Part shown: in pieces, positions 175 to 54,252 of the stretch
Layout of the letters: every line of letters starts with the position of its first letter
Numbering within the stretch: position 1 is the first letter of the stretch
From: Chloroflexota bacterium
Lineage (GTDB): Bacteria; Chloroflexota; Dehalococcoidia; JACQUO01
Reading direction: 5' to 3'
NCBI GenBank assembly: GCA_016210205.1
Contig: JACQUO010000023.1
Location: 3,788-67,787, forward strand
Length of the DNA: 64,000 nt
Program-made: the position numbers and the translations under genes
The notes under the pieces: generated by a model
Told to the model about the DNA's origin: nothing
Database searches by the model: none
The model's input: the letters and a program-made list of their open reading frames with translations, nothing else

Positions 175-1611
175 TTGGTAGGGCCTATGGAAGATAAACC
201 CATCGCCCCAGCCCCCGGGGCCCAGGACTTCCTGGAGCAGGAGTGGGCGGGACTCCAGGGCCTCCGGCAAACGCTGGAGGCCTGCTTCCAGCGCCACGGC
301 TATCAGACGGTGGAGACGCCGGTGCTGGAGCACACCGACCTCTTCCTGCGCAAGTCCGGCGGCCAGCTGGCCTCCCAACTCTATGCCTTCACCGACCCGG
401 GCCAGAATCGCCTGAGCCTGCGCCCCGAATATACCGCCTCGGTCATCAGGGCCTTCATCGCCCACCGCCAGGCCGCGCCCCTGCCTCTGCGCTGGCAGTA
501 TGTGGGGCCGGTCTTCCGCTATCAGGCGGGGGAGGCCCTGCGCCAGTTCACCCAGGCGGGGGTGGAGCTCATCGGCGCGCCCGGCCCGCGGGCGGACGCC
601 GAGGTTCTGGCCCTGGCAGCCCAGGGAGTGCGGGCTACGGGCCTGGAGCAGTGCCAGCTGGTAGCAGGCCAGGTGGGGATTACCCTCTGGTGCCTGGGCG
701 AGCTGGGGCTTTCCGAGCGGCTCCGCCATGCCCTGGCGGGGCAGATGGCCCGGCTCCGCGAGGGTGTCAAGGGACAAGAAGCCCTGATGGAGCAGTTCCG
801 TGAGATGGGCCTGGTGGAAGCCCCGGGCGCCAACCTGGGGGAGGCCATGTCCCAGCTGGGGGAACGAGAGCAGGAGGCGCTCATTGAGGGCCTGCTGCGG
901 GAGACCAACGACGACTTTCGGGGGCGACGCAGCCGCGAGGAAATCATCTCGCGCTTTCGCGCCCGGCTCCGGGGGCGGGACCGCCTCGAGGTGGTGGAGC
1001 GCGGCCTGGAGTTCGCCTCGCGCTGGAGCGCGCTCTCCGGCCCGCCCACGGACATCTTGCGGCGCGCCGAGGCCCTGCTGGCGGAGTTCGGCCTGGAAGC
1101 CCGGGCCTTGACGGAGCTTAAGGAGCTGGTGGCCTTGCTGGACGAGGACGCCCTGGGGGGCGTTGACCTGGCTTTGGACTTCGGGCTGGCCCGGGGCCTG
1201 GCCTACTATACCGGCATCGTCTTTGAGGTGCGCCATGGCTTGGGCCCCAACGGCGGGCCCCTGGCCCGGGGCGGCCGCTACGACGGCCTGGTGCGCGCTC
1301 TAGGGGGCATTGATGTGCCGGCCCTGGGCTTCGCCTTCGGGCTGGAGCGCCTCCGGGATGCCCAAGAGGCGGAAGGGCTGGAGGCCGCCCCCAGCGGGGC
1401 GACGCCACAGGTCCTGGTGGCACCCGACTCCGCCGCGGCCTATCCCCACGCCCTGCGCCTGGCCCGCTCCCTGCGGGAGGACGGGGCGATAGTTCAAGTT
1501 GACATAAATATGCGCACCTCCATCGCCAACCGGGAATACGCCAAGCGGTGCGGCATCCCCCAGCTCATCATCGTGGACAAGAAGGGGAAGGCCCACCGGA
1601 GCGAGGTCTAG
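175..1611 (+). CDS. hisZ: HisRS-like paralog, probable ATP phosphoribosyltransferase regulatory subunit HisZ, retaining an anticodon-binding-like C-terminus
   Basis: Class II HisRS fold motifs are present (LRPEYTASVIRAF, GGRYDGL). Motif-2 arginines are degenerate (FRYQAGEALRQF instead of FRHERPQKGRYRQF). A C-terminal HGTP-anticodon-like domain is present. The gene is directly upstream of hisG. A true HisS cannot be excluded. Confidence 0.55.
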   Translation: MVGPMEDKPIAPAPGAQDFLEQEWAGLQGLRQTLEACFQRHGYQTVETPVLEHTDLFLRKSGGQLASQLYAFTDPGQNRLSLRPEYTASVIRAFIAHRQAAPLPLRWQYVGPVFRYQAGEALRQFTQAGVELIGAPGPRADAEVLALAAQGVRATGLEQCQLVAGQVGITLWCLGELGLSERLRHALAGQMARLREGVKGQEALMEQFREMGLVEAPGANLGEAMSQLGEREQEALIEGLLRETNDDFRGRRSREEIISRFRARLRGRDRLEVVERGLEFASRWSALSGPPTDILRRAEALLAEFGLEARALTELKELVALLDEDALGGVDLALDFGLARGLAYYTGIVFEVRHGLGPNGGPLARGGRYDGLVRALGGIDVPALGFAFGLERLRDAQEAEGLEAAPSGATPQVLVAPDSAAAYPHALRLARSLREDGAIVQVDINMRTSIANREYAKRCGIPQLIIVDKKGKAHRSEV

Positions 1612-2643: not shown

Positions 2644-3956
2644 GGCTTTTCCGCACCGCCTCCGCGGCCCGCCAGTCCCTCCTCCGGCGCCTCCCTCTGG
2701 AGGAGTGGCGGGTCCCTCCCGCCATGCGGCGTCGCCTGCGGGAGGTCTTCGGGCGAGGCGTCAGCCCCCAGGCCGCGGTGGAGCGCATCATCGCCCAGGT
2801 GCGCTCGCAAGGGGATAAGGCCCTTATTGAGCTGGCCCAGAAGCTCGACGGGGTGCGCCTCACCCGCCTGGAGGTGACCCGGGGCGAGATAGCCCTGGCC
2901 TACCGGGAGGTGGATGAGGGCTTGGTGGAAGCCCTGAAGCTGGCCGCCGGACGCATCCGTTCCTTCCACCAGGGCCGACTCCCCCAGTCGTGGGTGGACT
3001 TCACGGAAGGTGGGCTGGGCCAGCTGGTGCGCCCCCTGGACCGGGTGGGCCTCTATGTGCCGGGGGGCACGGCCGCCTATCCCTCCACGGTGCTCATGAC
3101 GGCCATCCCCGCCCGGGCCGCTGGTGTGGGCGAGGTCATCGTCGCCACCCCGCCGGGCCCCGCGGGAGTCGCCGTCCCCGCCGTGCTGGTGGCCGCGGAC
3201 CTGGCGGGCGTGAACCGCATCTTCAAGCTCGGGGGGGCGGCGGCCATCGCCGCCCTGGCCTATGGGACGGAATCGGTGCCTAAAGTGGACAAAATCTGCG
3301 GGCCTGGTAATATCTTCGTGGCCCTGGCCAAGAAGCAGGTCTTCGGCGCCGTGGGGGTGGATGGACTCTACGGCCCCACGGAAACCGTCATCCTGGCCGA
3401 TGGGGCTGCCGACCCGGCCCGGGTGGCCGCCGGCCTCTTGGCCCAGGCGGAGCACGACGAACTGGCCTCGGCCATCCTCATGACGCCGTCTCTGACCCTG
3501 GCCCGCAAGGTGAATAGGGAAGTTGCGGCCCAACTCCGCACTCTGGAACGGCGGGAGACCGCCGCCCGTTCCCTGCGCCGCCGGGGCGGCATCGTCATCC
3601 TCCGCGACCTGGACGAAGGGGTAGAGTTGGTCAACGAGTATGCCCCAGAGCATCTGGAGCTCCTCTGCGCCGACCCCTGGCCCCTGGTGGGTCAGATAAG
3701 GCACGCCGGCGGCATCTTCGTGGGCACGCCCGAGGCCCTGGGCGACTATGTGGCTGGCCCCAGCCATGTCATGCCCACGGTCGGCAGCGCCCGCTGGGCC
3801 GGGGCCTTGACCGCCGCCGACTTCCTCAAGGTCACCAGCCTGGTGGCCCTGGGGCGGGAGACGGCCCGCGCCCTGGCCCCCGCCGCCGCGGCCTTGGCCC
3901 GCGCCGAGGGGCTGACTGCCCACGCCCGGGCGGCGGAGAAAGCCGCCGCGTCGTAA
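2640..3956 (+). CDS. hisD: histidinol dehydrogenase
   Basis: Conserved HisD segments are present (GLYVPGGTAAYPSTVLM, ICGPGNIFVA, AQAEHDELA). A GTG start overlaps the hisG stop (GTGA). The true start could instead be the internal Met near 2724. Confidence 0.85.
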   Translation: MRLFRTASAARQSLLRRLPLEEWRVPPAMRRRLREVFGRGVSPQAAVERIIAQVRSQGDKALIELAQKLDGVRLTRLEVTRGEIALAYREVDEGLVEALKLAAGRIRSFHQGRLPQSWVDFTEGGLGQLVRPLDRVGLYVPGGTAAYPSTVLMTAIPARAAGVGEVIVATPPGPAGVAVPAVLVAADLAGVNRIFKLGGAAAIAALAYGTESVPKVDKICGPGNIFVALAKKQVFGAVGVDGLYGPTETVILADGAADPARVAAGLLAQAEHDELASAILMTPSLTLARKVNREVAAQLRTLERRETAARSLRRRGGIVILRDLDEGVELVNEYAPEHLELLCADPWPLVGQIRHAGGIFVGTPEALGDYVAGPSHVMPTVGSARWAGALTAADFLKVTSLVALGRETARALAPAAAALARAEGLTAHARAAEKAAAS

Positions 3957-38019: not shown

Positions 38020-38378
38020 TTGAGCGTGGGGACGAGGGGTTCGACAGGGAAGGAGGTTACGAGATTGCAGGCCGAGGTGCCGTCACCCTCGATAATCAGG
38101 CGGCAAAATATAACTGGCGAACGTGAATTCGCACTAGCGGCCTAAAAGGCTGCTACGTCTGCCCCCGCCTCTCCTCCATGGGCAGGGAGCGGGCGACGTA
38201 ATGTGGAGGTGCTGTGGCCTTTACGCCCTTAAGGGCCGCCTAAGACCCAGGGGCTGGCCTCGGGAAGACTCGGCCGGTTGAGTCCCCCGGGGTGAGAGCT
38301 AAAAGCCGGAAAAGCCTGTAGCATATCTCGGACGGCCTTCTGCTGGACGGGGAGTTCGACTCTCCCCCGTCTCCACCA
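38020..38378 (+). ncRNA. ssrA: tmRNA (transfer-messenger RNA)
   Basis: The 5' GGGGACG pairs with the 3' CGUCUCC-ACCA to form the acceptor stem. A T-arm-like GGAGTTCGACTCTCC is present. The in-frame tag reading frame ...GGC GAA CGT GAA TTC GCA CTA GCG GCC TAA encodes GEREFALAA*. The gene lies 15 nt downstream of smpB. Confidence 0.85.
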
Positions 38379-46910: not shown

Positions 46911-49475
46911 GTGCTGCCTCTGAAGCTCACCCTCCACAACTTCATGTGCTACGGGGAGGATGTCCCCCCCCTCTCCTTCGAGGGCATCCCCCTGGCCTGC
47001 CTCTGCGGGGACAACGGCCACGGCAAGTCCGCCCTCCTGGACGCCATCACCTGGGCCCTGTGGGGCCGCGCCCGCGCCCCGGACGACGCCCTGGTCAACT
47101 ACGGCCGCCAGGAGATGACCGTGGCCCTGGAGTTCGCCGTGGGCCCTAACCGCTACCGAGCGCTGCGGGGCCACCAGCGTCCCCGAGGGGCCAAAGGCTC
47201 CGGCAAGTCCTGGCTGGAGCTCCAGGCCCGGGCCGACGGCGACTACCGGGCCCTCTCCGGCGCCAGCCTCCGAGAGACCCAGGAGCAGATAAACCGCCTC
47301 CTCCACCTGGACTACGAGACCTTCGTCAACAGCGCCTTCCTGCGCCAGGGGCGAGCCGACGCCTTCTCCACCAAGACCCCGGGGGAGCGCAAGGCTCTCT
47401 TGGGGGAGATACTGGGGCTTTCTTCCTACGATGAGCTGGAGCAGCAAGCCCGGGGGCTGTCCCGGGAGCGGGAGGCGGAGGCGGCAAGCTTGACGAAAGC
47501 CCTGGAGGCCCTGGAGACCGAGGTGTCCCAGGAAGAGACGCTGACCGAGGAGCAGCGCCAAATCCGCACAGCCCTGGCGGAGGTGGAGGCCTACATCGAG
47601 ATGCAGGAGTTGGCCATGGAGGACCTGCGCGAGCACATCCAGGACCACCTGCACCAGCAGTCCCTCCTGCAGGAGTCCCGACGCCGGCTCACTCAGGCGG
47701 AAAACGAGATGAAGCGGCTCCAGGCCCAGATAGAGGACTGGCAGAGGCAAATCGCCACTTTTCAGGCCGCCCTGGCCGCCCGAGACGAGGTGGAGGCCGG
47801 ATATAGCCGCCTCCTGGCCCTCCGGCAGGAGAACGAGGCGCAAAACCGGGCCCTGGCCCAACTGCGCCGCTGGGAGCTCCAGCGGGGCGAGCTGGAGCTG
47901 GCCCTGGCCCAGGCCCGGGCCGCGCTGGACAAAGAGCAGGCGGTGCTTGAGGCCAACCTGAGGCGCCTCCAGGCCCAGGCGGGGCGGCGCCCTCAACTGG
48001 AGCAAGACCTGGCCCAGGCCAGGGAACGCGAGCAGGGGCTCCTGACCCTTGAAGGCCACCTGCAAGAACGCCGCCAGGCTTTAGCAACCATGGAGGCCAG
48101 CGTCCAGGGGCTGCGCCTCACTAACGCCCAACTCAAGGAGGAGATGCTCGGACTGAAGCAAAAAGTGGACATGCTCAAGGACGGCGATGCCCTCTGCCCC
48201 CTCTGCGGCACCGAGCTGGGCCTCTCCGGTCAAGAGCACATCCGCCGCGAGTACCAGTCCCAGGGAGAGGGGAAAAGAGACCTCTTCCGCGCCAACGAAG
48301 GCGAGTTGACCCGCCTGGAGAAAGAGGCCGTAGACAACACCCGCCTGCTCCAGGCCGAGCAGGCTCGCTTCCTCCAGGAGAGCGCCGGGGGCCAGGCCCA
48401 AGTCCAAACCCTGCAGCGCCAGTTGGAGGAAGCGCATACGGCTGATGAAGAGGCCCAACAGGCCCAAGAGCGAATGGCCAAACTCCAGAGCACCATCGCA
48501 GGAGAGGACTTTGCCCACCAGCAACGGGCTGAACTGGCGCAAGTGCGCGGAGAGATGGCCCGCCTGGCCTACCACCCCGAGGCCCACCAACGGCTGGGCC
48601 AAGACCTGGCCGCCCACGAGGCCTTCGAGCCGCGGCGCCAGGAGCTGGCCCAGGCCGAGGCCTCTCTGGAGCGGAGAATTGAAGGGCTGGAGCAAGCCCA
48701 GACCGCCCTCAGGCAGTGGGAGGAAATCCAGCGGGCCGAGTCCCAGCGCATCACGACCATTGAGCCCGTGCTGGCCGTCATCCCCACCCTCCAGGCGGAC
48801 CTGGAGGGCGCCCAGGGCGCCCTGCGCCAGATGCAGGAGCAGCGCGGCCTCGGACAGAGGGACCTGGGGGCCGTCCAGGAGAAGATGGCTCGCCTCGCTG
48901 CGGCCAAGGAGGATAAGGCCCAAAAAGCCGCTGCTTTAGCCCAGGCGCGTGAGGAAGGGCAGGCCTACCAGGAACTGGCCCGAGCCTTCGGCAAGGACGG
49001 CATCCAGGCCCTCATCATCGAGGCGGCCCTGCCCGAGCTAGAGGAGGAGGCCAACAGGCTCCTGGCTCGCCTGACCGACAACCGCATGCACCTCAAGCTG
49101 GAGACGCAGCGCCTCACCCGCAAGGGAGAGGCTGCCGAGACCCTTCAGATACACATCTCCGACGAGCTGGGCACCCGCCCCTATGAGACCTTCAGCGGCG
49201 GCGAGGCCTTCCGCATCAACTTCGCCCTCCGGGTGGCCCTCTCCCGGCTCCTGGCCCGGCGGGCCGGGGCCCCCCTGCCCACGCTGTTCATCGACGAAGG
49301 GTTCGGCACCCAGGACGCCGCCGGCCGCGAGCGCCTCGTCGAGGCCATCAACGCCATCGCCCCGGACTTCGAGCGCATCATCGTCATCACCCATATGGAG
49401 GAAATAAAGGAGGCCTTCCCCGTCCGTATTGAGGTGTTCAAGGACGAGAAAGGCTGCCGGGTGACGATCACCTAA
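46911..49475 (+). CDS. sbcC: DNA repair ATPase SbcC (Rad50/SMC family)
   Basis: An N-terminal Walker A (GDNGHGKSALLDAITWALWG), a coiled coil with a zinc hook (CPLCG), and a C-terminal signature/Walker B (FSGGEAFRINFALRVAL...LFIDEGFG) are present. GTG start. Confidence 0.85.
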   Translation: MLPLKLTLHNFMCYGEDVPPLSFEGIPLACLCGDNGHGKSALLDAITWALWGRARAPDDALVNYGRQEMTVALEFAVGPNRYRALRGHQRPRGAKGSGKSWLELQARADGDYRALSGASLRETQEQINRLLHLDYETFVNSAFLRQGRADAFSTKTPGERKALLGEILGLSSYDELEQQARGLSREREAEAASLTKALEALETEVSQEETLTEEQRQIRTALAEVEAYIEMQELAMEDLREHIQDHLHQQSLLQESRRRLTQAENEMKRLQAQIEDWQRQIATFQAALAARDEVEAGYSRLLALRQENEAQNRALAQLRRWELQRGELELALAQARAALDKEQAVLEANLRRLQAQAGRRPQLEQDLAQAREREQGLLTLEGHLQERRQALATMEASVQGLRLTNAQLKEEMLGLKQKVDMLKDGDALCPLCGTELGLSGQEHIRREYQSQGEGKRDLFRANEGELTRLEKEAVDNTRLLQAEQARFLQESAGGQAQVQTLQRQLEEAHTADEEAQQAQERMAKLQSTIAGEDFAHQQRAELAQVRGEMARLAYHPEAHQRLGQDLAAHEAFEPRRQELAQAEASLERRIEGLEQAQTALRQWEEIQRAESQRITTIEPVLAVIPTLQADLEGAQGALRQMQEQRGLGQRDLGAVQEKMARLAAAKEDKAQKAAALAQAREEGQAYQELARAFGKDGIQALIIEAALPELEEEANRLLARLTDNRMHLKLETQRLTRKGEAAETLQIHISDELGTRPYETFSGGEAFRINFALRVALSRLLARRAGAPLPTLFIDEGFGTQDAAGRERLVEAINAIAPDFERIIVITHMEEIKEAFPVRIEVFKDEKGCRVTIT

Positions 49476-50026
49476 AGGCCCAGGTCCCCGCCGATGCCCT
49501 GCATGGCAGCCAGCCCCAGGGCGACGAACTCCTCCAGGTCCAGGCCCAGCACCGAGCAGAGGGCGATTTGCTCGCGGCTGGCCCCGGCGGCGAAGCGCTT
49601 TTCCTTGAATCGCTTGAGCACCGACTGGGCCTCCACCCCCGCCAGCCTTTTGTCGGGCCGCACCAGAGCGGCGGCAGTGATGAGCCCGGTGAGGGGGTCG
49701 GCGCAGAAGAGGGCCTGGTCCAGGAGGGTCTCCCGTCCGTGTCCGTGGGTCTCATTGTGGCGCAGGATGGCGGCGGCCATCTCCGCGGTGGCCCCCATCT
49801 CCCGGGCCAGGGCGGCGCCCTCACGGCTGTGGCGCGTCATGTCCCCTCCCGTGGCCTCCACATCAATGTCGTGGAGCAGGCCCACCAGGCCCCAGGTAGC
49901 CTCATCCTGGCCCAGACGGCGGGCCAGGCCCCTCATAATCGCCTCGGTAGCCAGCATATGCTTCACCAAGTTGTCGTTCTGCACCCTCGCCCGGATGGCG
50001 GCCAGGGCCGCGGCGCGGTCAATCAT
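49472..50026 (-). CDS. HD-domain phosphohydrolase
   Basis: An HD motif (LLHDID) and a downstream His/Asp are present. 184 aa. Confidence 0.7.
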   Translation of the reverse strand: MIDRAAALAAIRARVQNDNLVKHMLATEAIMRGLARRLGQDEATWGLVGLLHDIDVEATGGDMTRHSREGAALAREMGATAEMAAAILRHNETHGHGRETLLDQALFCADPLTGLITAAALVRPDKRLAGVEAQSVLKRFKEKRFAAGASREQIALCSVLGLDLEEFVALGLAAMQGIGGDLGL

Positions 50027-50142
50027 AGCATCACCCCTTTCTCTGATCGAGCTTGCCCTAAGGCAGGTTAAATAGTAACAAAAGGCCCAGTCTTATGCTA
50101 TCATGCAGGCAAAAGCGCGTAGTGAAGTGATGGGAGGTCACC

Positions 50143-50460
50143 ATGCCGTATCTTCCCGCCCAGTACCGCCGGTTCCAAAAGCGCTACCCGAAGCTGGCCA
50201 GGGCCTATGGAAGGTTCGCTGTCCAGGTGCACGAGGCCGGGCCCCTCTCGGAGCGAGAGCGGCGACTGGTGAAGCTGGGTATGGCCATCGGCGTTTCTTC
50301 CCAAGGGGCCGTCAAGTCCCATGCCCGGCGCGCCCTGGAGGTTGGAGTCACGGCGGAAGAGGTGCGCCATGCCGTGGTCTTGGCGCTGACCACCGTGGGC
50401 TTCCCCACCATGATTGCCGCCTCCGAGTGGTTGGAGGACGTGCTGGCAGCTCACAAGTAA
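50143..50460 (+). CDS. carboxymuconolactone decarboxylase (AhpD-like) family protein
   Basis: ~105-aa CMD-fold pattern (LVKLGMAIGVSSQGAVKSH...). Confidence 0.6.
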   Translation: MPYLPAQYRRFQKRYPKLARAYGRFAVQVHEAGPLSERERRLVKLGMAIGVSSQGAVKSHARRALEVGVTAEEVRHAVVLALTTVGFPTMIAASEWLEDVLAAHK

Positions 50461-50512
50461 GGCCGGGATACTGAAGTTGTCCGCCGCAGAGAACCTCAGG
50501 AAGCAAAGGGAA

Positions 50513-51505
50513 ATGGCAGAATCCCCCAAGCAGCGCCGCCCGAGAAAGGTTCCCAAAGGGCCGCGGGAGAGCCCCCGGGCGGCCTCGCCTGAGGAGAAGC
50601 CTAAGCCTGAGGCAGGCAGCTCCGGCCTGCCCCACTTCGCCCATGCCAGCGAGGAGGAGTTCGCCCACATTCTGGACTTCTACCGCATCCCCTGGCAATA
50701 TGAGCCCCGTTCCTTCCCCCTGGCCTGGGATGGCGACCATGTTACGGAGATGTTCACCCCGGATTTCTATCTGCCTGAGCAAGACCTCTACCTTGAACTC
50801 ACCACCCTAAAACAGAGCCTGGTCACCGAGAAGAACCGCAAGCTCCGCCGCATGGGGGAGCTCTATCCTGACATCAAGGTCAAGCTCCTCTACCGCAAGG
50901 ACTACCATCGCTTCCTGGCCAAGTTCGGCGCCGGGCCCCTGGCGGACCTGCGCCTGGAGGGCACGGGGAGGGTGCTCCTCTCCGAGTCCCAAATCCAGCG
51001 GCGGGTGAAGGAGCTTGCGGCCCAAATCTCCCAGGACTATCAGGGGCGGCATCCCATCCTGGTGGGGGTGCTGAAAGGGGTGGTGTGCTTCATGGCGGAC
51101 CTGATGCGGGCCGTCTCCATACCCCTCTCCATCGAGTTCATGGCCATCTCCTACTATCACGGCCACCCCTCAGAGGCGGTGCGCATCGTCAAGGATTTGG
51201 AGCAGAACATCGGCGGCCGCCATGTGCTCCTGGTGGAAGACATCGTGGACACGGGCCTCACCCTGAACTATATCCTGCGCCTGCTGGAGAGCCGCGGGCC
51301 CGCCAGCCTGGAGGTCTGCACCCTGCTGGACAAGCGCTCCCGGAGAATAGCTCCCCTTTCCCTTAAATATGTGGGCTTTGAAATCCCCGATGAGTTTGTG
51401 GTGGGCTACGGCTTGGACTACGGGGAGGAGTACCGCAATCTTCCCTTCATCGCCGTCCTCAAGGCCGAGGCTCAGGGCCAGCGCAGGCCCGCAGCAGATA
51501 GCTAA
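50513..51505 (+). CDS. hpt: hypoxanthine-guanine phosphoribosyltransferase with ~170-aa N-terminal extension of unknown function
   Basis: The C-terminal 180 aa are canonical Hpt (VLLVEDIVDTGLTLNYI PRPP motif, FVVGYGLDYGEEYRNLPFI). The N-terminal half has a coding-like codon bias but no recognised family. An RBS-like GGAAG..GGGAA precedes the ATG at 50513. Confidence 0.75.
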   Translation: MAESPKQRRPRKVPKGPRESPRAASPEEKPKPEAGSSGLPHFAHASEEEFAHILDFYRIPWQYEPRSFPLAWDGDHVTEMFTPDFYLPEQDLYLELTTLKQSLVTEKNRKLRRMGELYPDIKVKLLYRKDYHRFLAKFGAGPLADLRLEGTGRVLLSESQIQRRVKELAAQISQDYQGRHPILVGVLKGVVCFMADLMRAVSIPLSIEFMAISYYHGHPSEAVRIVKDLEQNIGGRHVLLVEDIVDTGLTLNYILRLLESRGPASLEVCTLLDKRSRRIAPLSLKYVGFEIPDEFVVGYGLDYGEEYRNLPFIAVLKAEAQGQRRPAADS

Positions 51506-51555
51506 AAACCGAGCCGTCCTCTCGCCCTTCACCATCCCCTCGTCCTCGGGTCAGG

Positions 51556-51820
51556 ACAAAACAAAAAGGGCCTTTTCGGCCCTAAAAAGCAAAGACCCAA
51601 GTAACCTTGCGCTTTGGTGGCTCTCGGCCCCCTCTTTCCTTTCGGATTGCCCTACTCGGATAGGCTGCCCACTTCCACCAGTTTCTCTGGGGTGTCTCTC
51701 GGTGGCTCACTCCCTGGGGCGCCTTGCCCGCTTGGCTTCTGCCACCTCGACCTTCGGGGCCTTCCCCGCCCGGTCTTGGTCTCCGCGACTCCCGAGAGCC
51801 CTCGCTCAATTACTTGGGTC
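51556..51820 (-). ncRNA. unidentified structured ncRNA candidate (~265 nt) with its own promoter and intrinsic terminator
   Basis: Minus-strand TTGACA (51855-51850), a 17-nt spacer, then TAAATT (51832-51827). The first 10 transcript nt (ACCCAAGUAA) pair perfectly with UUACUUGGGU, which closes a ~225-nt domain. An additional 9-bp perfect helix GGCUCUCGG/CCGAGAGCC is present. A GGGCCGAAAAGGCCC-UUUUUGUUUUG terminator is at 51582-51556. Confidence 0.45.
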
Positions 51821-51925
51821 ATCTATAATTTACCACCGACCATGCCTATTGTCAATACCCTTTTAATTCGTTCGGAAATTCCCAAAGGGCTAGGCCACGC
51901 CGGGCAAAACCTTTATACTTGAGCC

Positions 51926-53521
51926 ATGAGCCGGCAATTTGCGCAGCGGCTGAAAGTCCTCTCCCGCGAGAGGGGCGCTATCCACAAGGACTGGGGCGGC
52001 CGAGTACCCATCGTCCTGGTCTTCCCCAACTCCTATCACTTGGGCATGTCCAGCCTGGGCTTTCAGACCATCTATGGCCTGTGGAACTCCTTCAGGGATT
52101 TCGTCTGCGAGCGGGCCTTTTGGGAACCTCAGCGCGACCATAAGGGCCTGGGTGAGCCCCCCCTGAGCCTGGAGTCGGGCCGCCCCCTGACCGACTTCGC
52201 CCTGGTAGCCTTCTCCGCCTCCTTCGAGCTGGACTACCCTCATATCGTGCAGGTCCTGCGGACCAGCGGCATCCCCGCCCTGGCATCCCAACGAGACCAG
52301 CGGCACCCCTTAGTCCTGGTGGGCGGCCCGGCGGTGAGCGCCAACCCGGAGCCCCTGGCCTCCATAATCGACGCCTTTGTCATAGGTGAGGCCGAGCCGG
52401 TGCTCCCCAGGCTGGCCCAGGTCATGGTCAAAGAGGTGGGGGCGGACCGGGAACACCTGCTCCAGACGCTGGTGGAGGTGCCGGGGGTGTATGTGCCCCG
52501 GATGACCGGCCAGGAGAGGCCGGTGGCCCGCCAGCAGGCCCAGAGCCTGGAAGGCTTCGCCACCACCTCGGTGGTCCTGACCCCCGACACCGAGCTGGGG
52601 GAGCGCTATCTCATGGAAATTGGGCGGGGCTGCGCCTGGGCCTGCGGCTTCTGCCTGGCGGGCCATATCTTCCGCCCCCTGCGAACCCGCACCGTGGCAT
52701 CCCTGGTGGCCCAGGCCCAGGAGGGCCTGAAGCTGAGCCCCCGGCTGGGCCTGGTGAGCGCCGCCATCTCCGACTACCCCCACCTGGGCGAGCTGGCGAC
52801 GGCCCTCTCGTCCCTGGGGGCGCAGCTCTCCGTCTCCTCCCTGCGCCCCCGGCCACTGCCGGAATCCCTGCTGGCGGCCCTGGCCGCGGGCGGCGCTCAC
52901 ACCCTTACCATGGCCCCGGAGGCCGGGCCGGCCCTGCGTCTTGCCGTGGGGAAGAGGCTAAGGGACGAGGACTTCCTGGAAGCGGCTGAGCGGGCCTCCG
53001 CCTACCCCTTCCGACACCTCAAGCTCTACTTCATGGTGGGGCTCCCCGAGGAGACGGAGAGCGACCTGGCGGAGATTGTCCGGCTGACCCTGGAGATGAA
53101 AGCCAGCCTGGAAAGACGGGGGAGTCTTTGTCAGCTCAGCCTAAATGTCAGCCCCTTTGTGCCCAAGGCCCAGACACCCTTCGAGCGCGAGCCCCTGGCT
53201 CCGGCTCAAGTCTTGGAGGAGCGCTTGCGCTTCCTGAGCCGGGAGCTCCGCCATAAGGGGATAAAGGTGTCGGGAGAAGGGGTAGGATGGAGCGTAATCC
53301 AGGGCCTCCTGTCTCGGGGCGACTCCTCCCTGGGTCGGGTCCTGGTGGAGATGGAGGAGAACACCCTGTCGGGGTGGCGCCGGGCTCTGGCCGCGGCCGG
53401 CGTCGAACGGGAAGCCATCCACCGGCCTCTGCCACCCCACGCCGCCCTCCCCTGGGACCACCTGCGCCAAGTGGAGACAGCCCCTGTAGAGCTGGCCCAA
53501 CTCGCCGGAGAGTCAGCCTAG
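51926..53521 (+). CDS. B12-binding-domain-containing radical SAM protein
   Basis: CxxxCxxC (GCAWACGFC) in a radical-SAM core, with an N-terminal Rossmann-like B12-binding-type domain. 531 aa. Confidence 0.7.
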   Translation: MSRQFAQRLKVLSRERGAIHKDWGGRVPIVLVFPNSYHLGMSSLGFQTIYGLWNSFRDFVCERAFWEPQRDHKGLGEPPLSLESGRPLTDFALVAFSASFELDYPHIVQVLRTSGIPALASQRDQRHPLVLVGGPAVSANPEPLASIIDAFVIGEAEPVLPRLAQVMVKEVGADREHLLQTLVEVPGVYVPRMTGQERPVARQQAQSLEGFATTSVVLTPDTELGERYLMEIGRGCAWACGFCLAGHIFRPLRTRTVASLVAQAQEGLKLSPRLGLVSAAISDYPHLGELATALSSLGAQLSVSSLRPRPLPESLLAALAAGGAHTLTMAPEAGPALRLAVGKRLRDEDFLEAAERASAYPFRHLKLYFMVGLPEETESDLAEIVRLTLEMKASLERRGSLCQLSLNVSPFVPKAQTPFEREPLAPAQVLEERLRFLSRELRHKGIKVSGEGVGWSVIQGLLSRGDSSLGRVLVEMEENTLSGWRRALAAAGVEREAIHRPLPPHAALPWDHLRQVETAPVELAQLAGESA

Positions 53522-53639
53522 ATGGATGGGCCATCGACACCGCCGGAATGAGGGGGCGGCTTGTCCCGGCTGCCGCAGGAGAGGGACAGAGGCCGGAGGA
53601 CTAACCAGCGCCACAAGTGACGCAGGCCCTGTCCCTCTT

Positions 53640-53649
53640 TGCTATAATA
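53640..53649 (+). promoter_or_regulatory. extended -10 promoter element (TGcTATAAT)
   Basis: Read directly. Upstream of an AGGAGGAGG RBS and the TTG start of the following gene. Preceded by a long hairpin (GAGAGGGACAG...CTGTCCCTCTT). Confidence 0.35.
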
Positions 53650-53748
53650 CAGAGCATCGACCGCCTGCCCCCGGCCCAGACGCTGGCGGACGGCTAAGGG
53701 GAGCTCTACGACGGCGACACGACCTTATTAAGCAGGAGGAGGCCAACC

Positions 53749-54252
53749 TTGGAGCAGTTTCTGATGAAGGGTGAGCACATCACGGCCACCTGCCAGACCG
53801 GCCGGGGACAATACATCACCACCAACAAGCGCATCCTTCTCCACCACCGCACCCTGACCCACGAGAGCCTCTTGGACCTCTCCTACCACGCCGTGACCAC
53901 CATCGCCTGCCATCGAGTAGTGGGCCAAACGCGGCTCTCCTCTGGTATCGTCCTCATAGTTTTTGGCCTTTTGGTTGTGGCCGTAGGTTCTCTCTTCAGT
54001 TTCAGCCTGGCCTCAGCTATCGGCGCGGTCCTGGCCCTGCTGGGCGTGGCCTTCCTGGTGCTGGCCTTCCTCCTCAGGCATAACTATTGCCAGCTGGGCG
54101 GCACTGGCCCCCTGTCTGACCCCAAGGAGCGCCTTCTCTGGCGGGTGGAGGGGATGCGGTGGACCGACCTTCTGGCCTTCGCCCAGGAGGTGCGTCGACA
54201 CCTGGACAGCGAGCTTGAGCCGAAGGCCGAGGGTCCTGACAAAGCGTCATGA
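53749..54252 (+). CDS. hypothetical membrane protein (bacterial PH-like N-terminal domain plus 2 TM helices)
   Basis: 167 aa with two hydrophobic helices in the middle. TTG start with a strong RBS. Confidence 0.5.
   Translation: MEQFLMKGEHITATCQTGRGQYITTNKRILLHHRTLTHESLLDLSYHAVTTIACHRVVGQTRLSSGIVLIVFGLLVVAVGSLFSFSLASAIGAVLALLGVAFLVLAFLLRHNYCQLGGTGPLSDPKERLLWRVEGMRWTDLLAFAQEVRRHLDSELEPKAEGPDKAS

Follow-up and report, generated by a model that had tools for sequence, protein, structure and literature searches.

A predicted structured RNA gene beside hpt points to a Chloroflexota RNA family absent from Rfam 15

The locus and its features

We analyzed a 64,000-nucleotide (nt) stretch of a Chloroflexota genome (Dehalococcoidia; JACQUO01; GenBank assembly GCA_016210205.1, contig JACQUO010000023.1, positions 3,788 to 67,787 of the forward strand), hereafter the window, in which a candidate RNA gene occupies the 420-nt gap between two plus-strand genes. 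The candidate lies on the minus strand and spans, promoter and terminator included, positions 51855..51556, between the end of hpt at 51505 and the start of a radical-SAM gene at 51926. On comparative sequence grounds we firmly conclude that the locus holds a conserved, non-coding, structured RNA gene, whose family is absent from Rfam 15 and is here called the hpt-adjacent RNA of Chloroflexota. An earlier note on this DNA had proposed an independently transcribed, structured and possibly unclassified non-coding RNA closed by a terminal helix. Covariation, a promoter in 47/47 aligned members, and the lack of an Rfam match all support this proposal, with expression as the part that we infer. The features of the locus are as follows, where L038 denotes a close relative described below and P1 and P2 are the two outer helices.

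51850..51855, minus strand: −35 hexamer TTGACA, identical in L038; the spacing of TTGAC(A) to the closing helix is fixed in 47/47 aligned members
51827..51835, minus strand: extended −10 element TGgTAAATT, with the hexamer TAAATT at 51832..51827 (TAGATT in L038); family pattern TGnTAnnnT
51808..51820, minus strand: P1 closing helix, 5′ strand, GACCCAAGUAAUU; supported by family covariation and by an end hidden Markov model (end-HMM) built without the window
51594..51606, minus strand: P1 closing helix, 3′ strand, GGUUACUUGGGUC; supported by family covariation, the end-HMM, and G.U-based strand specificity
51801..51807, minus strand: junction above P1, 5′ side, GAGCGAG; a GA/AA 2x2 purine loop, then GCG pairing with CGC at 51611..51609
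51607..51614, minus strand: junction above P1, 3′ side, AAAGCGCAA; conserved purine junction
51792..51800, minus strand: P2, 5′ strand, GGCUCUCGG; exact 9-bp complement, unchanged in L038
51619..51627, minus strand: P2, 3′ strand, CCGAGAGCC; exact partner of the 5′ strand
51628..51791, minus strand: several hairpins in a variable interior domain that has expanded in this lineage and differs in length and architecture between family subtypes
51638..51659, minus strand: apex module CCGAGUAGG-GCAA-UCCGAAAGG; an AGUA/GAAA (loop-E or sarcin-ricin-like) motif around a short stem with a GNRA loop
51584..51593, minus strand: U-rich tract UUUGCUUUUU, directly 3′ of P1
51556..51583, minus strand: separate intrinsic terminator with hairpin AGGGCCGAAAAGGCCCU and, behind it, UUUUGUUUUG; found by a terminator scan (stem 51583..51567, U-run to ~51556)
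50513..51505, plus strand: hpt, long form (N-terminal domain plus HPRT), convergent with the RNA

Promoter and predicted transcript ends

The near-consensus promoter TTGACA-17-TAAATT of the earlier note is present with both hexamers and the 17-nt spacer; it scores 10/12 and is the top promoter-like site that a promoter scan returned within 50000-54000. It follows the family pattern, TTGACA-17-(TGn)TAnnnT ending ∼6–8 nt ahead of the closing helix, and the same geometry is found in 47/47 aligned family members. Transcription is predicted to start at ∼51822-51820, at the first base of the closing helix, and the predicted size of the RNA is about 235–268 nt.

A U-tract stands immediately behind the 3′ strand of P1 in 47/47 members, many of which carry no other terminator-like signal. 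The intrinsic terminator claimed for the window was also recovered, and this hairpin behind the U-tract is an addition of the window lineage. In members of the subgroup that we call type A, the GGGG of the 3′ helix strand can alternatively base-pair with CCCC farther downstream, which gives a local terminator hairpin. A riboswitch or 5′ leader was considered and rejected: on its own strand the RNA leads to two terminator signals and then to hpt in antisense, and the interior architecture varies between subtypes.

Helices and fold of the window copy

The two ends of the predicted transcript are complementary. On the minus strand, ACCCAAGUAA (51819..51810) pairs exactly with UUACUUGGGU (51604..51595), as had been claimed, and the helix extends beyond these 10 nt to 13 bp, of which the final two pairs are U.G. 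The distance of 225 nt given for the two arms is correct if counted from the first paired base through the last, but not as the gap between the arms. The second helix, described as perfect over 9 bp, is likewise exact (51800..51792 with 51627..51619), and its core CUCUCGG/CCGAGAG is also found in the relative L040. In the relative L039, one G-C pair of the GCG/CGC stem of the junction is replaced by C-G.

The 271-nt transcript folds at −114 kcal/mol compared with −95.8 ± 5.2 kcal/mol for dinucleotide shuffles (z = −3.5), and 0/200 shuffles folded as well. In the minimum-free-energy fold of the single sequence, CUCUCGG pairs with an internal CCGAGAG rather than with the 3′ strand of P2. This internal competitor is mutated in L038 (G51698 to U), whereas the 3′ partner is intact there; therefore, the P2 helix with the 3′ partner is the better supported of the two.

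The core of the window copy measures 227 nt and is branched. The copies of the window, L038, and L039 (227–265 nt) are enlarged by extra hairpins, whereas the short members of the family (110–131 nt) fold into rods without branches, and their internal loops are small, symmetric, and purine-rich. The rod-like domain that the earlier note compared with signal recognition particle (SRP) RNA and 6S RNA describes the 110–130-nt relatives well and the branched window copy less so. Judged by this comparison of sequences, the ancestral form is an unbranched rod, which is expanded and branched in the window copy.

Conservation in a close relative

L038 is a Logan contig from a genus-level relative with the same gene order, and its hpt product shares 91% amino acid identity with that of the window. 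The shared block (window 46911-50026 onwards; L038 1092-5812) runs from an SbcC-like ATPase (854 amino acids) through an HD-domain protein, hpt, and the RNA to the radical-SAM gene; in L038 it is preceded by a metallo-β-lactamase/RMMBL gene.

Within the RNA core, the window and L038 are 93.4% identical (15 differences in 228 columns; P = 1.5e-5 under 16% neutral divergence), and the U-tract and terminator (51556-51595) are identical in 40/40 columns. By comparison, four-fold degenerate sites of the four flanking genes are 82–85% identical, and the spacers are 83% identical towards the radical-SAM gene and 59% identical (next 51 columns) towards hpt. All 15 differences fall within 51649-51774, where they lie in loops, change G-C to G.U, or exchange one GNRA loop for another (GCAA to GGAA). 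This pattern points to purifying selection on both the RNA core and the terminator.

Two minus-strand open reading frames (ORFs) lie over the RNA, one starting with ATG (51822..51652; 56 amino acids) and one with TTG (51809..51582; 75 amino acids), and the ATG of the former coincides with the predicted transcription start. In L038, a deletion of 1 nt and a stop codon disrupt the 56-amino acid ORF. No ORF is conserved across the family, in which the longest ORF of a member has a median of 27 codons. The statement that no ORF with coding bias lies on this strand therefore needs amending in that two ORFs exist, and it stands in that the ATG ORF is disrupted in the relative. We reject a small protein gene because of this frameshift. 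Further ORFs overlap the RNA gene, namely a called 78-amino acid “gene” in the ENA contig L039 (4160-4396, minus strand) and a 165-amino acid ORF on the plus strand of the window (51369-51866), which is not kept in frame in L038; both are almost certainly spurious.

Members of the family and their distribution

A two-sequence profile of the window and L038 found a full-length homologue in L039 (E = 5e-4) and weaker matches to the 3′ part of the RNA in ∼15 further loci, in every case on the strand opposite hpt and a short way downstream of it. On inspection, these loci carry complete genes, each comprising a TTGACA-17-TAnnnT promoter, a U-tract, and a closing helix that differs little in sequence. 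Paired end-HMMs matched with the correct spacing in 63/86 metagenome hpt loci, and several of the remaining 23 are contigs that end too soon. With one further member on a 3.26-Mb contig, the family counts at least 64 loci, spread over dozens of uncultured Chloroflexota. Its members are 110–265 nt long with a mean purine content of 66%, and they include a 112-nt form in a metagenome-assembled genome (MAG) of Dehalococcoidales.

When the end-HMMs were rebuilt without the window and L038, their best match in the whole window, both strands considered, was to the two arms of P1 (E = 0.1 and 0.023); nothing comparable was found in 593 kb of control loci. No second copy of the RNA was found within the 64-kb window. 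DNA similar to the RNA gene was absent from the phage and plasmid collections searched by BLAST and from the viral contigs searched by pattern scan.

The RNA is mostly convergent on hpt, and several loci deviate from this arrangement. In L055, two copies (1359-1472, plus strand; 3400-3514, minus strand) flank a (GAF-)hpt gene and both point towards it, and in L054 a second copy (204-315, plus strand) lies upstream of hpt and points into it; the paired copies in these two loci are ∼85% identical, promoters included. L083 (1161-1266, plus strand) and L091 (3573-3685, plus strand) carry the RNA downstream of hpt in the same orientation, and in soil loci of a subgroup that we call type D (e.g. L100, 1797-1927) it lies ∼320–370 nt from the hpt stop codon. 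In the type-A loci L056, L067, and L073, the DNA ∼100–250 nt upstream of the RNA promoter appears by eye to encode a transposase/integrase-like C-terminal end (EYNFNRPHQS-type), which suggests insertion-sequence activity there.

Covariation and conserved modules

Covariation was computed on an alignment of 47 members. The earlier note had named the absence of compensatory changes in relatives as a sign of a DNA palindrome. For P1 such changes were found, in favor of an RNA: 96.5% of cells are paired, and 10/14 pairs are altered on both sides, for example from A-U to G-C at four positions in 8–17 sequences each. None of 500 shuffles reached the observed covariation score, and slid controls paired in at most 56% of cells. 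P1 also contains G.U pairs in 106/656 cells, which lowers pairing on the complementary strand to 80.3% of cells. This strand-asymmetric pairing and the conserved promoter establish which strand is transcribed and rule out a symmetric DNA palindrome. A palindrome of the repetitive extragenic palindromic (REP) kind or a plain bidirectional terminator is ruled out by the unequal pairing of the two strands, the single copy in the window, and the RNA's own conserved promoter.

The closing helix has the family consensus GYCCCAAGURRY / RYYACUUGGGRC followed by the U-tract, which the window matches. Above P1, the conserved junction YGA(A/G)C ... (A/G)AGG reads UGAGC...GCAAGG in the window, and pair 19-323 is paired in 91.5%. 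Most members also contain the module R-GUA-RG [short stem, GNRA-type loop] CC-GAAA-GG, which carries the AGUA/GAA signature of loop-E/sarcin-ricin motifs; the window has it as a short hairpin, CCGAGUAGGGCAAUCCGAAAGG, flanked by AGUA...GAAA. In the type-A subgroup (16 members), covariation additionally supports P2, a hairpin of 8 bp at the apex, and two small GNRA hairpins; P4 covaries, and a small hairpin is 100% paired.

Searches against known RNAs and the literature

At the gathering threshold, Rfam 15 recognized only a transfer-messenger RNA (tmRNA) in the whole window. This is a full-length tmRNA gene at 38028-38378 on the plus strand (RF00023; 142 bits, E = 1e-55). A permissive scan of 51450-51950 with E up to 10 gave only noise and no 6S, SRP, ribonuclease P (RNase P), or Y RNA. 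Likewise, no 6S, SRP (small or large), or Y RNA/YrlA match was found at E < 10 in the type-A locus L056 (3440-3700), and nothing relevant was found in 16 homologous loci at E < 1 to E < 5. The check proposed in the earlier note, against SRP, 6S, and RNase P RNA among others, thus returned no matching family, and its suggestion of an unclassified RNA is borne out. It had also been unable to match the P4 motif of RNase P or the GGAA/AGCAGC motif of SRP RNA by eye; in agreement, neither model matches, and the conserved apex motif is AGUA/GAAA instead. RNase P RNA was rejected for lack of a covariance-model match. A CsrA sponge was rejected as well, because GGA triplets, counted by hand, are not above composition (6 observed compared with ∼9 expected in the window, and 9 compared with ∼7 in a type-A member).

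We found no published description of an hpt-adjacent RNA family in the searchable literature, and a full-text search for the helix sequence returned only irrelevant primer matches. The available part of the Breaker-lab survey of 50 genomes, which includes Dehalococcoides mccartyi 195, mentions the rdhA motif alone for that genome. A 2026 RNA-seq study of D. mccartyi CBDB1 reports three abundant small RNAs without an Rfam match, sRNA1-3 (PMC12961961). The long contigs that we sought for Dehalococcoides proved not to be Dehalococcoides and carry other subtypes of the RNA or no RNA.

The neighboring hpt gene

The product of hpt combines an HPRT domain (residues 147–319) with an N-terminal domain of ∼100 amino acids (residues ∼42–140) that is highly conserved, with ∼35 invariant residues. 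The N-terminal domain has no sequence match in Pfam, NCBIfam, or the PDB. Its AlphaFold model is confident (pLDDT, the predicted local distance difference test, of 88.7) and shows the topology α-β4-α-β-α. In a Foldseek search of the PDB, the best matches were weak (best E = 6e-3, TM-score 0.4–0.55) and almost all PD-(D/E)xK nucleases, including R2 RLE, Bax1, I-Bth0305I, PspGI, and influenza PA-N, some of which are RNA endonucleases. Many hpt homologues additionally carry N-terminal GAF domains.

Every locus with the RNA has a long-form hpt gene, taken to include the N-terminal domain because the matches begin at query residues 5–54. Often, 0–10 nt separate the 3′ end of the RNA from the stop codon of hpt, or the two overlap. 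On the other side of the RNA, 37 genome loci around homologues of the radical-SAM gene showed no adjacent hpt and no RNA; apart from the copy in the Chloroflexota MAG that contains the window, the closest radical-SAM homologue is ∼52% identical.

Discussion

Taken together, the best explanation, to which we assign a probability of about 0.6, is that the locus encodes a small RNA (sRNA) of an unclassified family and that this stable RNA acts in trans, binding protein as a scaffold or decoy. A σ70 promoter would start the RNA at the first base of the 13-bp closing helix; the 3′ strand of this helix followed by the U-tract and, in the window lineage, by the second hairpin terminator would end it. 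The product would be an abundant, nuclease-resistant RNA with sealed 5′ and 3′ ends, as suggested by the strong conserved promoter, the sealed ends, and the two conserved modules around a free middle. Its partner would recognize it at two sites, one being the closing helix together with the GA junction and the other the loop-E-like hairpin. We favor a stable RNA that binds protein and acts in trans because every member has a near-consensus promoter, a long helix that seals the ends, and two modules that are kept while the middle varies.

Several points weigh against this explanation. The case for a trans-acting, protein-binding mode is architectural, and sequence signals are the sole source for expression, transcript ends, and abundance. 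Alternatively, the tight linkage to hpt could reflect a role in cis, as an antisense RNA, or specific to hpt; in many loci the 3′ ends abut or overlap the hpt stop codon, and in L055 two copies flank the gene. The homologue search sampled hpt neighborhoods only. The interior structure of the window copy draws on two informative relatives (L038 and L039), and for the CCGCC segment of type-A members two alternative partners score equally.

An unlikely alternative, and the one that survives best, is that the RNA serves this lineage as its 6S RNA and has diverged too far for the Rfam models to detect. As a mimic of an open promoter, it would bind the σ70 RNA polymerase holoenzyme, and synthesis of product RNA (pRNA) would release it. 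Like 6S RNA (ssrS; RF00013), the hpt-adjacent RNA has a free-standing gene with a strong σ70 promoter and ends that pair in a long closing stem. Both share an irregular rod (in most members of our family), purine-rich internal loops, and synteny with genes of nucleotide metabolism, and the hpt-adjacent RNA is probably also highly stable. Genes for 6S RNA often show synteny with genes of nucleotide or folate metabolism, such as ygfA in proteobacteria and purK in cyanobacteria. The type-A RNA (∼156 nt plus tail) lends itself to a drawing in which a purine-rich asymmetric internal region of ∼14/25 nt separates a closing arm from a terminal arm. Moreover, sRNA1 of D. mccartyi is described as a very abundant RNA of 188 nt that lacks an Rfam match and has an asymmetric loop at its center, and it has been proposed as 6S (PMC12961961). 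However, no 6S model matched even at E < 10 in searches of 261–501 nt, and many members, at 110–131 nt, are shorter than the cited range of 153–237 nt (PMC7726162). The internal loops of the short forms are small, symmetric, and purine-purine, and therefore probably adopt a structure instead of forming an open bubble. The sequence of the closing stem is conserved, which is atypical of 6S RNA, the window copy is branched, and the Dehalococcoidales MAG has a form of 112 nt and not of 188 nt.

Slightly less probable is that the RNA serves as a module in cis for hpt. Convergent transcription that reads through the closing helix and U-tract would yield an antisense RNA to hpt, and formation of the helix, possibly controlled by a ligand or protein, would set the extent of read-through; the RNA element may also double as a bidirectional terminator. 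B12-riboswitch-controlled RNAs of the antisense type, AspocR and EutX, are precedents. Adjacency to hpt in 63/86 loci, mostly in convergent orientation, is in line with such a role, as are the many 3′ ends at or over the hpt stop codon, the closing helix and U-tract as sole terminator in many members, and the second upstream copies in L055 and L054 that are aimed into hpt. In the window, however, a second strong terminator that is 100% conserved in L038 and the 50 nt between this terminator and hpt work against programmed read-through. In addition, the distance of ∼320–370 nt in type-D loci and the same-direction arrangement in L083 and L091 do not fit a module of this kind, the interior is far too variable for the core of a ligand-binding aptamer, and a near-consensus promoter in all members suggests constitutive high output.

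Slightly less probable still is that the RNA is a dedicated partner or regulator of the HPRT fused to the PD-(D/E)xK nuclease-fold-like domain, with the protein binding the closing helix or the loop-E hairpin. Such a ribonucleoprotein, in which the RNA would bind and control the purine-salvage enzyme or be processed by it, is improbable. Several observations are compatible with it: a long-form hpt at every RNA-bearing locus, the strong conservation of the N-terminal domain with its ∼35 invariant residues, the confident model with its best PDB matches among PD-(D/E)xK nucleases, and a closing-helix sequence that is unusually conserved for a purely structural helix. PyrR is a protein of the phosphoribosyltransferase (PRT) fold that binds a specific RNA hairpin, and RNA genes commonly lie beside the gene of a partner protein, as in rsr-Y RNA and smpB-tmRNA. 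Against this stand the weakness of the Foldseek matches and the fact that adjacency is what links the domain to RNA binding; the RNA and hpt are convergent and not co-transcribed. The co-occurrence of RNA and hpt is no independent test, because adjacency was the search criterion, and 23/86 loci, several of them truncated contigs, have no detectable RNA. If true, an RNA-HPRT ribonucleoprotein would link nucleotide pools to RNA metabolism, with recognition through the sequence-conserved closing helix and its GA junction or through the sarcin-ricin-like hairpin.

Finally, it is very improbable, and largely refuted, that there is no new RNA gene here at all. The locus would then be a feature of the DNA alone (palindrome, REP-like element, or plain terminator region), would encode a small protein, or would hold an SRP, RNase P, or Y RNA that Rfam missed. 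In favor, the arms of the closing helix form an inverted repeat at the DNA level, an ATG ORF begins at the predicted transcription start, and the short relatives resemble 4.5S RNA in size, shape, and GGAA-type loop. Against this, the helix with its G.U pairs pairs less well on the complementary strand, the element is single in the window, its promoter stands at a fixed distance in 47/47 members, the ORF is frameshifted in L038, and Rfam easily recovered the tmRNA of the same window while no SRP, RNase P, Y RNA, or 6S model matched at E < 10.

The short relatives resemble bacterial SRP (4.5S) RNA as rods of ∼110–130 nt with paired, conserved ends and a GNRA/GGAA-type apical loop next to purine-rich internal loops. 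They differ from it in that neither the small nor the large SRP model matches at E < 10 and that the apex motif is AGUA...GAAA and not the GGAA/AGCA of helix 8. SRP RNA is universal and normally detected by Rfam. With Y RNA/YrlA, the hpt-adjacent RNA shares a sequence-conserved terminal stem, a free interior, a short 3′ U-tail, and a gene kept beside one protein gene. In contrast to Y RNA/YrlA, there is no model match, the neighbors are hpt and the radical-SAM gene rather than rsr, and no tRNA-like domain was recognized. GUCCCAAGUA loosely resembles GGUCCGAAGGUA, the lower stem of Y RNA, a likeness that serves as a lead only.

The finding is new as a covarying RNA family and familiar in kind, as a free-standing structured bacterial sRNA. 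Orphan sRNA motifs restricted to one phylum, such as Chlorobi-1 (PMC2864571) and raiA, are likewise defined by conservation, covariation, and promoter and terminator signals. Unlike these, the hpt-adjacent RNA lies outside Rfam 15, is tied to one neighbor gene, and varies in size from 110 to 265 nt through insertion of whole hairpins. The closest parallel by lineage is sRNA1-3 of D. mccartyi CBDB1, which also come from Chloroflexota (Dehalococcoidia) and are monocistronic, with σ70 promoters and no Rfam match (PMC12961961). The 188 nt of sRNA1 are near the predicted full length of the type-A RNA, whereas the Dehalococcoidales MAG member has 112 nt.

For annotation, the family offers a correction, in that gene callers put spurious ORFs over the RNA element (78 amino acids in L039, 165 amino acids in the window). 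Its modular build, with a kept helix and hairpin around an interior of ∼80 to 240 nt, is a natural case for studying RNA expansion. The linkage also highlights an HPRT/nuclease-fold-like fusion without a matching family or solved structure and a possible connection between RNA and enzyme. Above all, the hpt-adjacent RNA adds a covarying structured RNA family to the Chloroflexota, a large and mostly uncultured phylum that includes Dehalococcoides, of importance in bioremediation, and for which very few non-coding RNAs are known. It is a candidate to account for the abundant sRNAs of D. mccartyi that lack an assignment, and it bears on the 6S RNA of this lineage.

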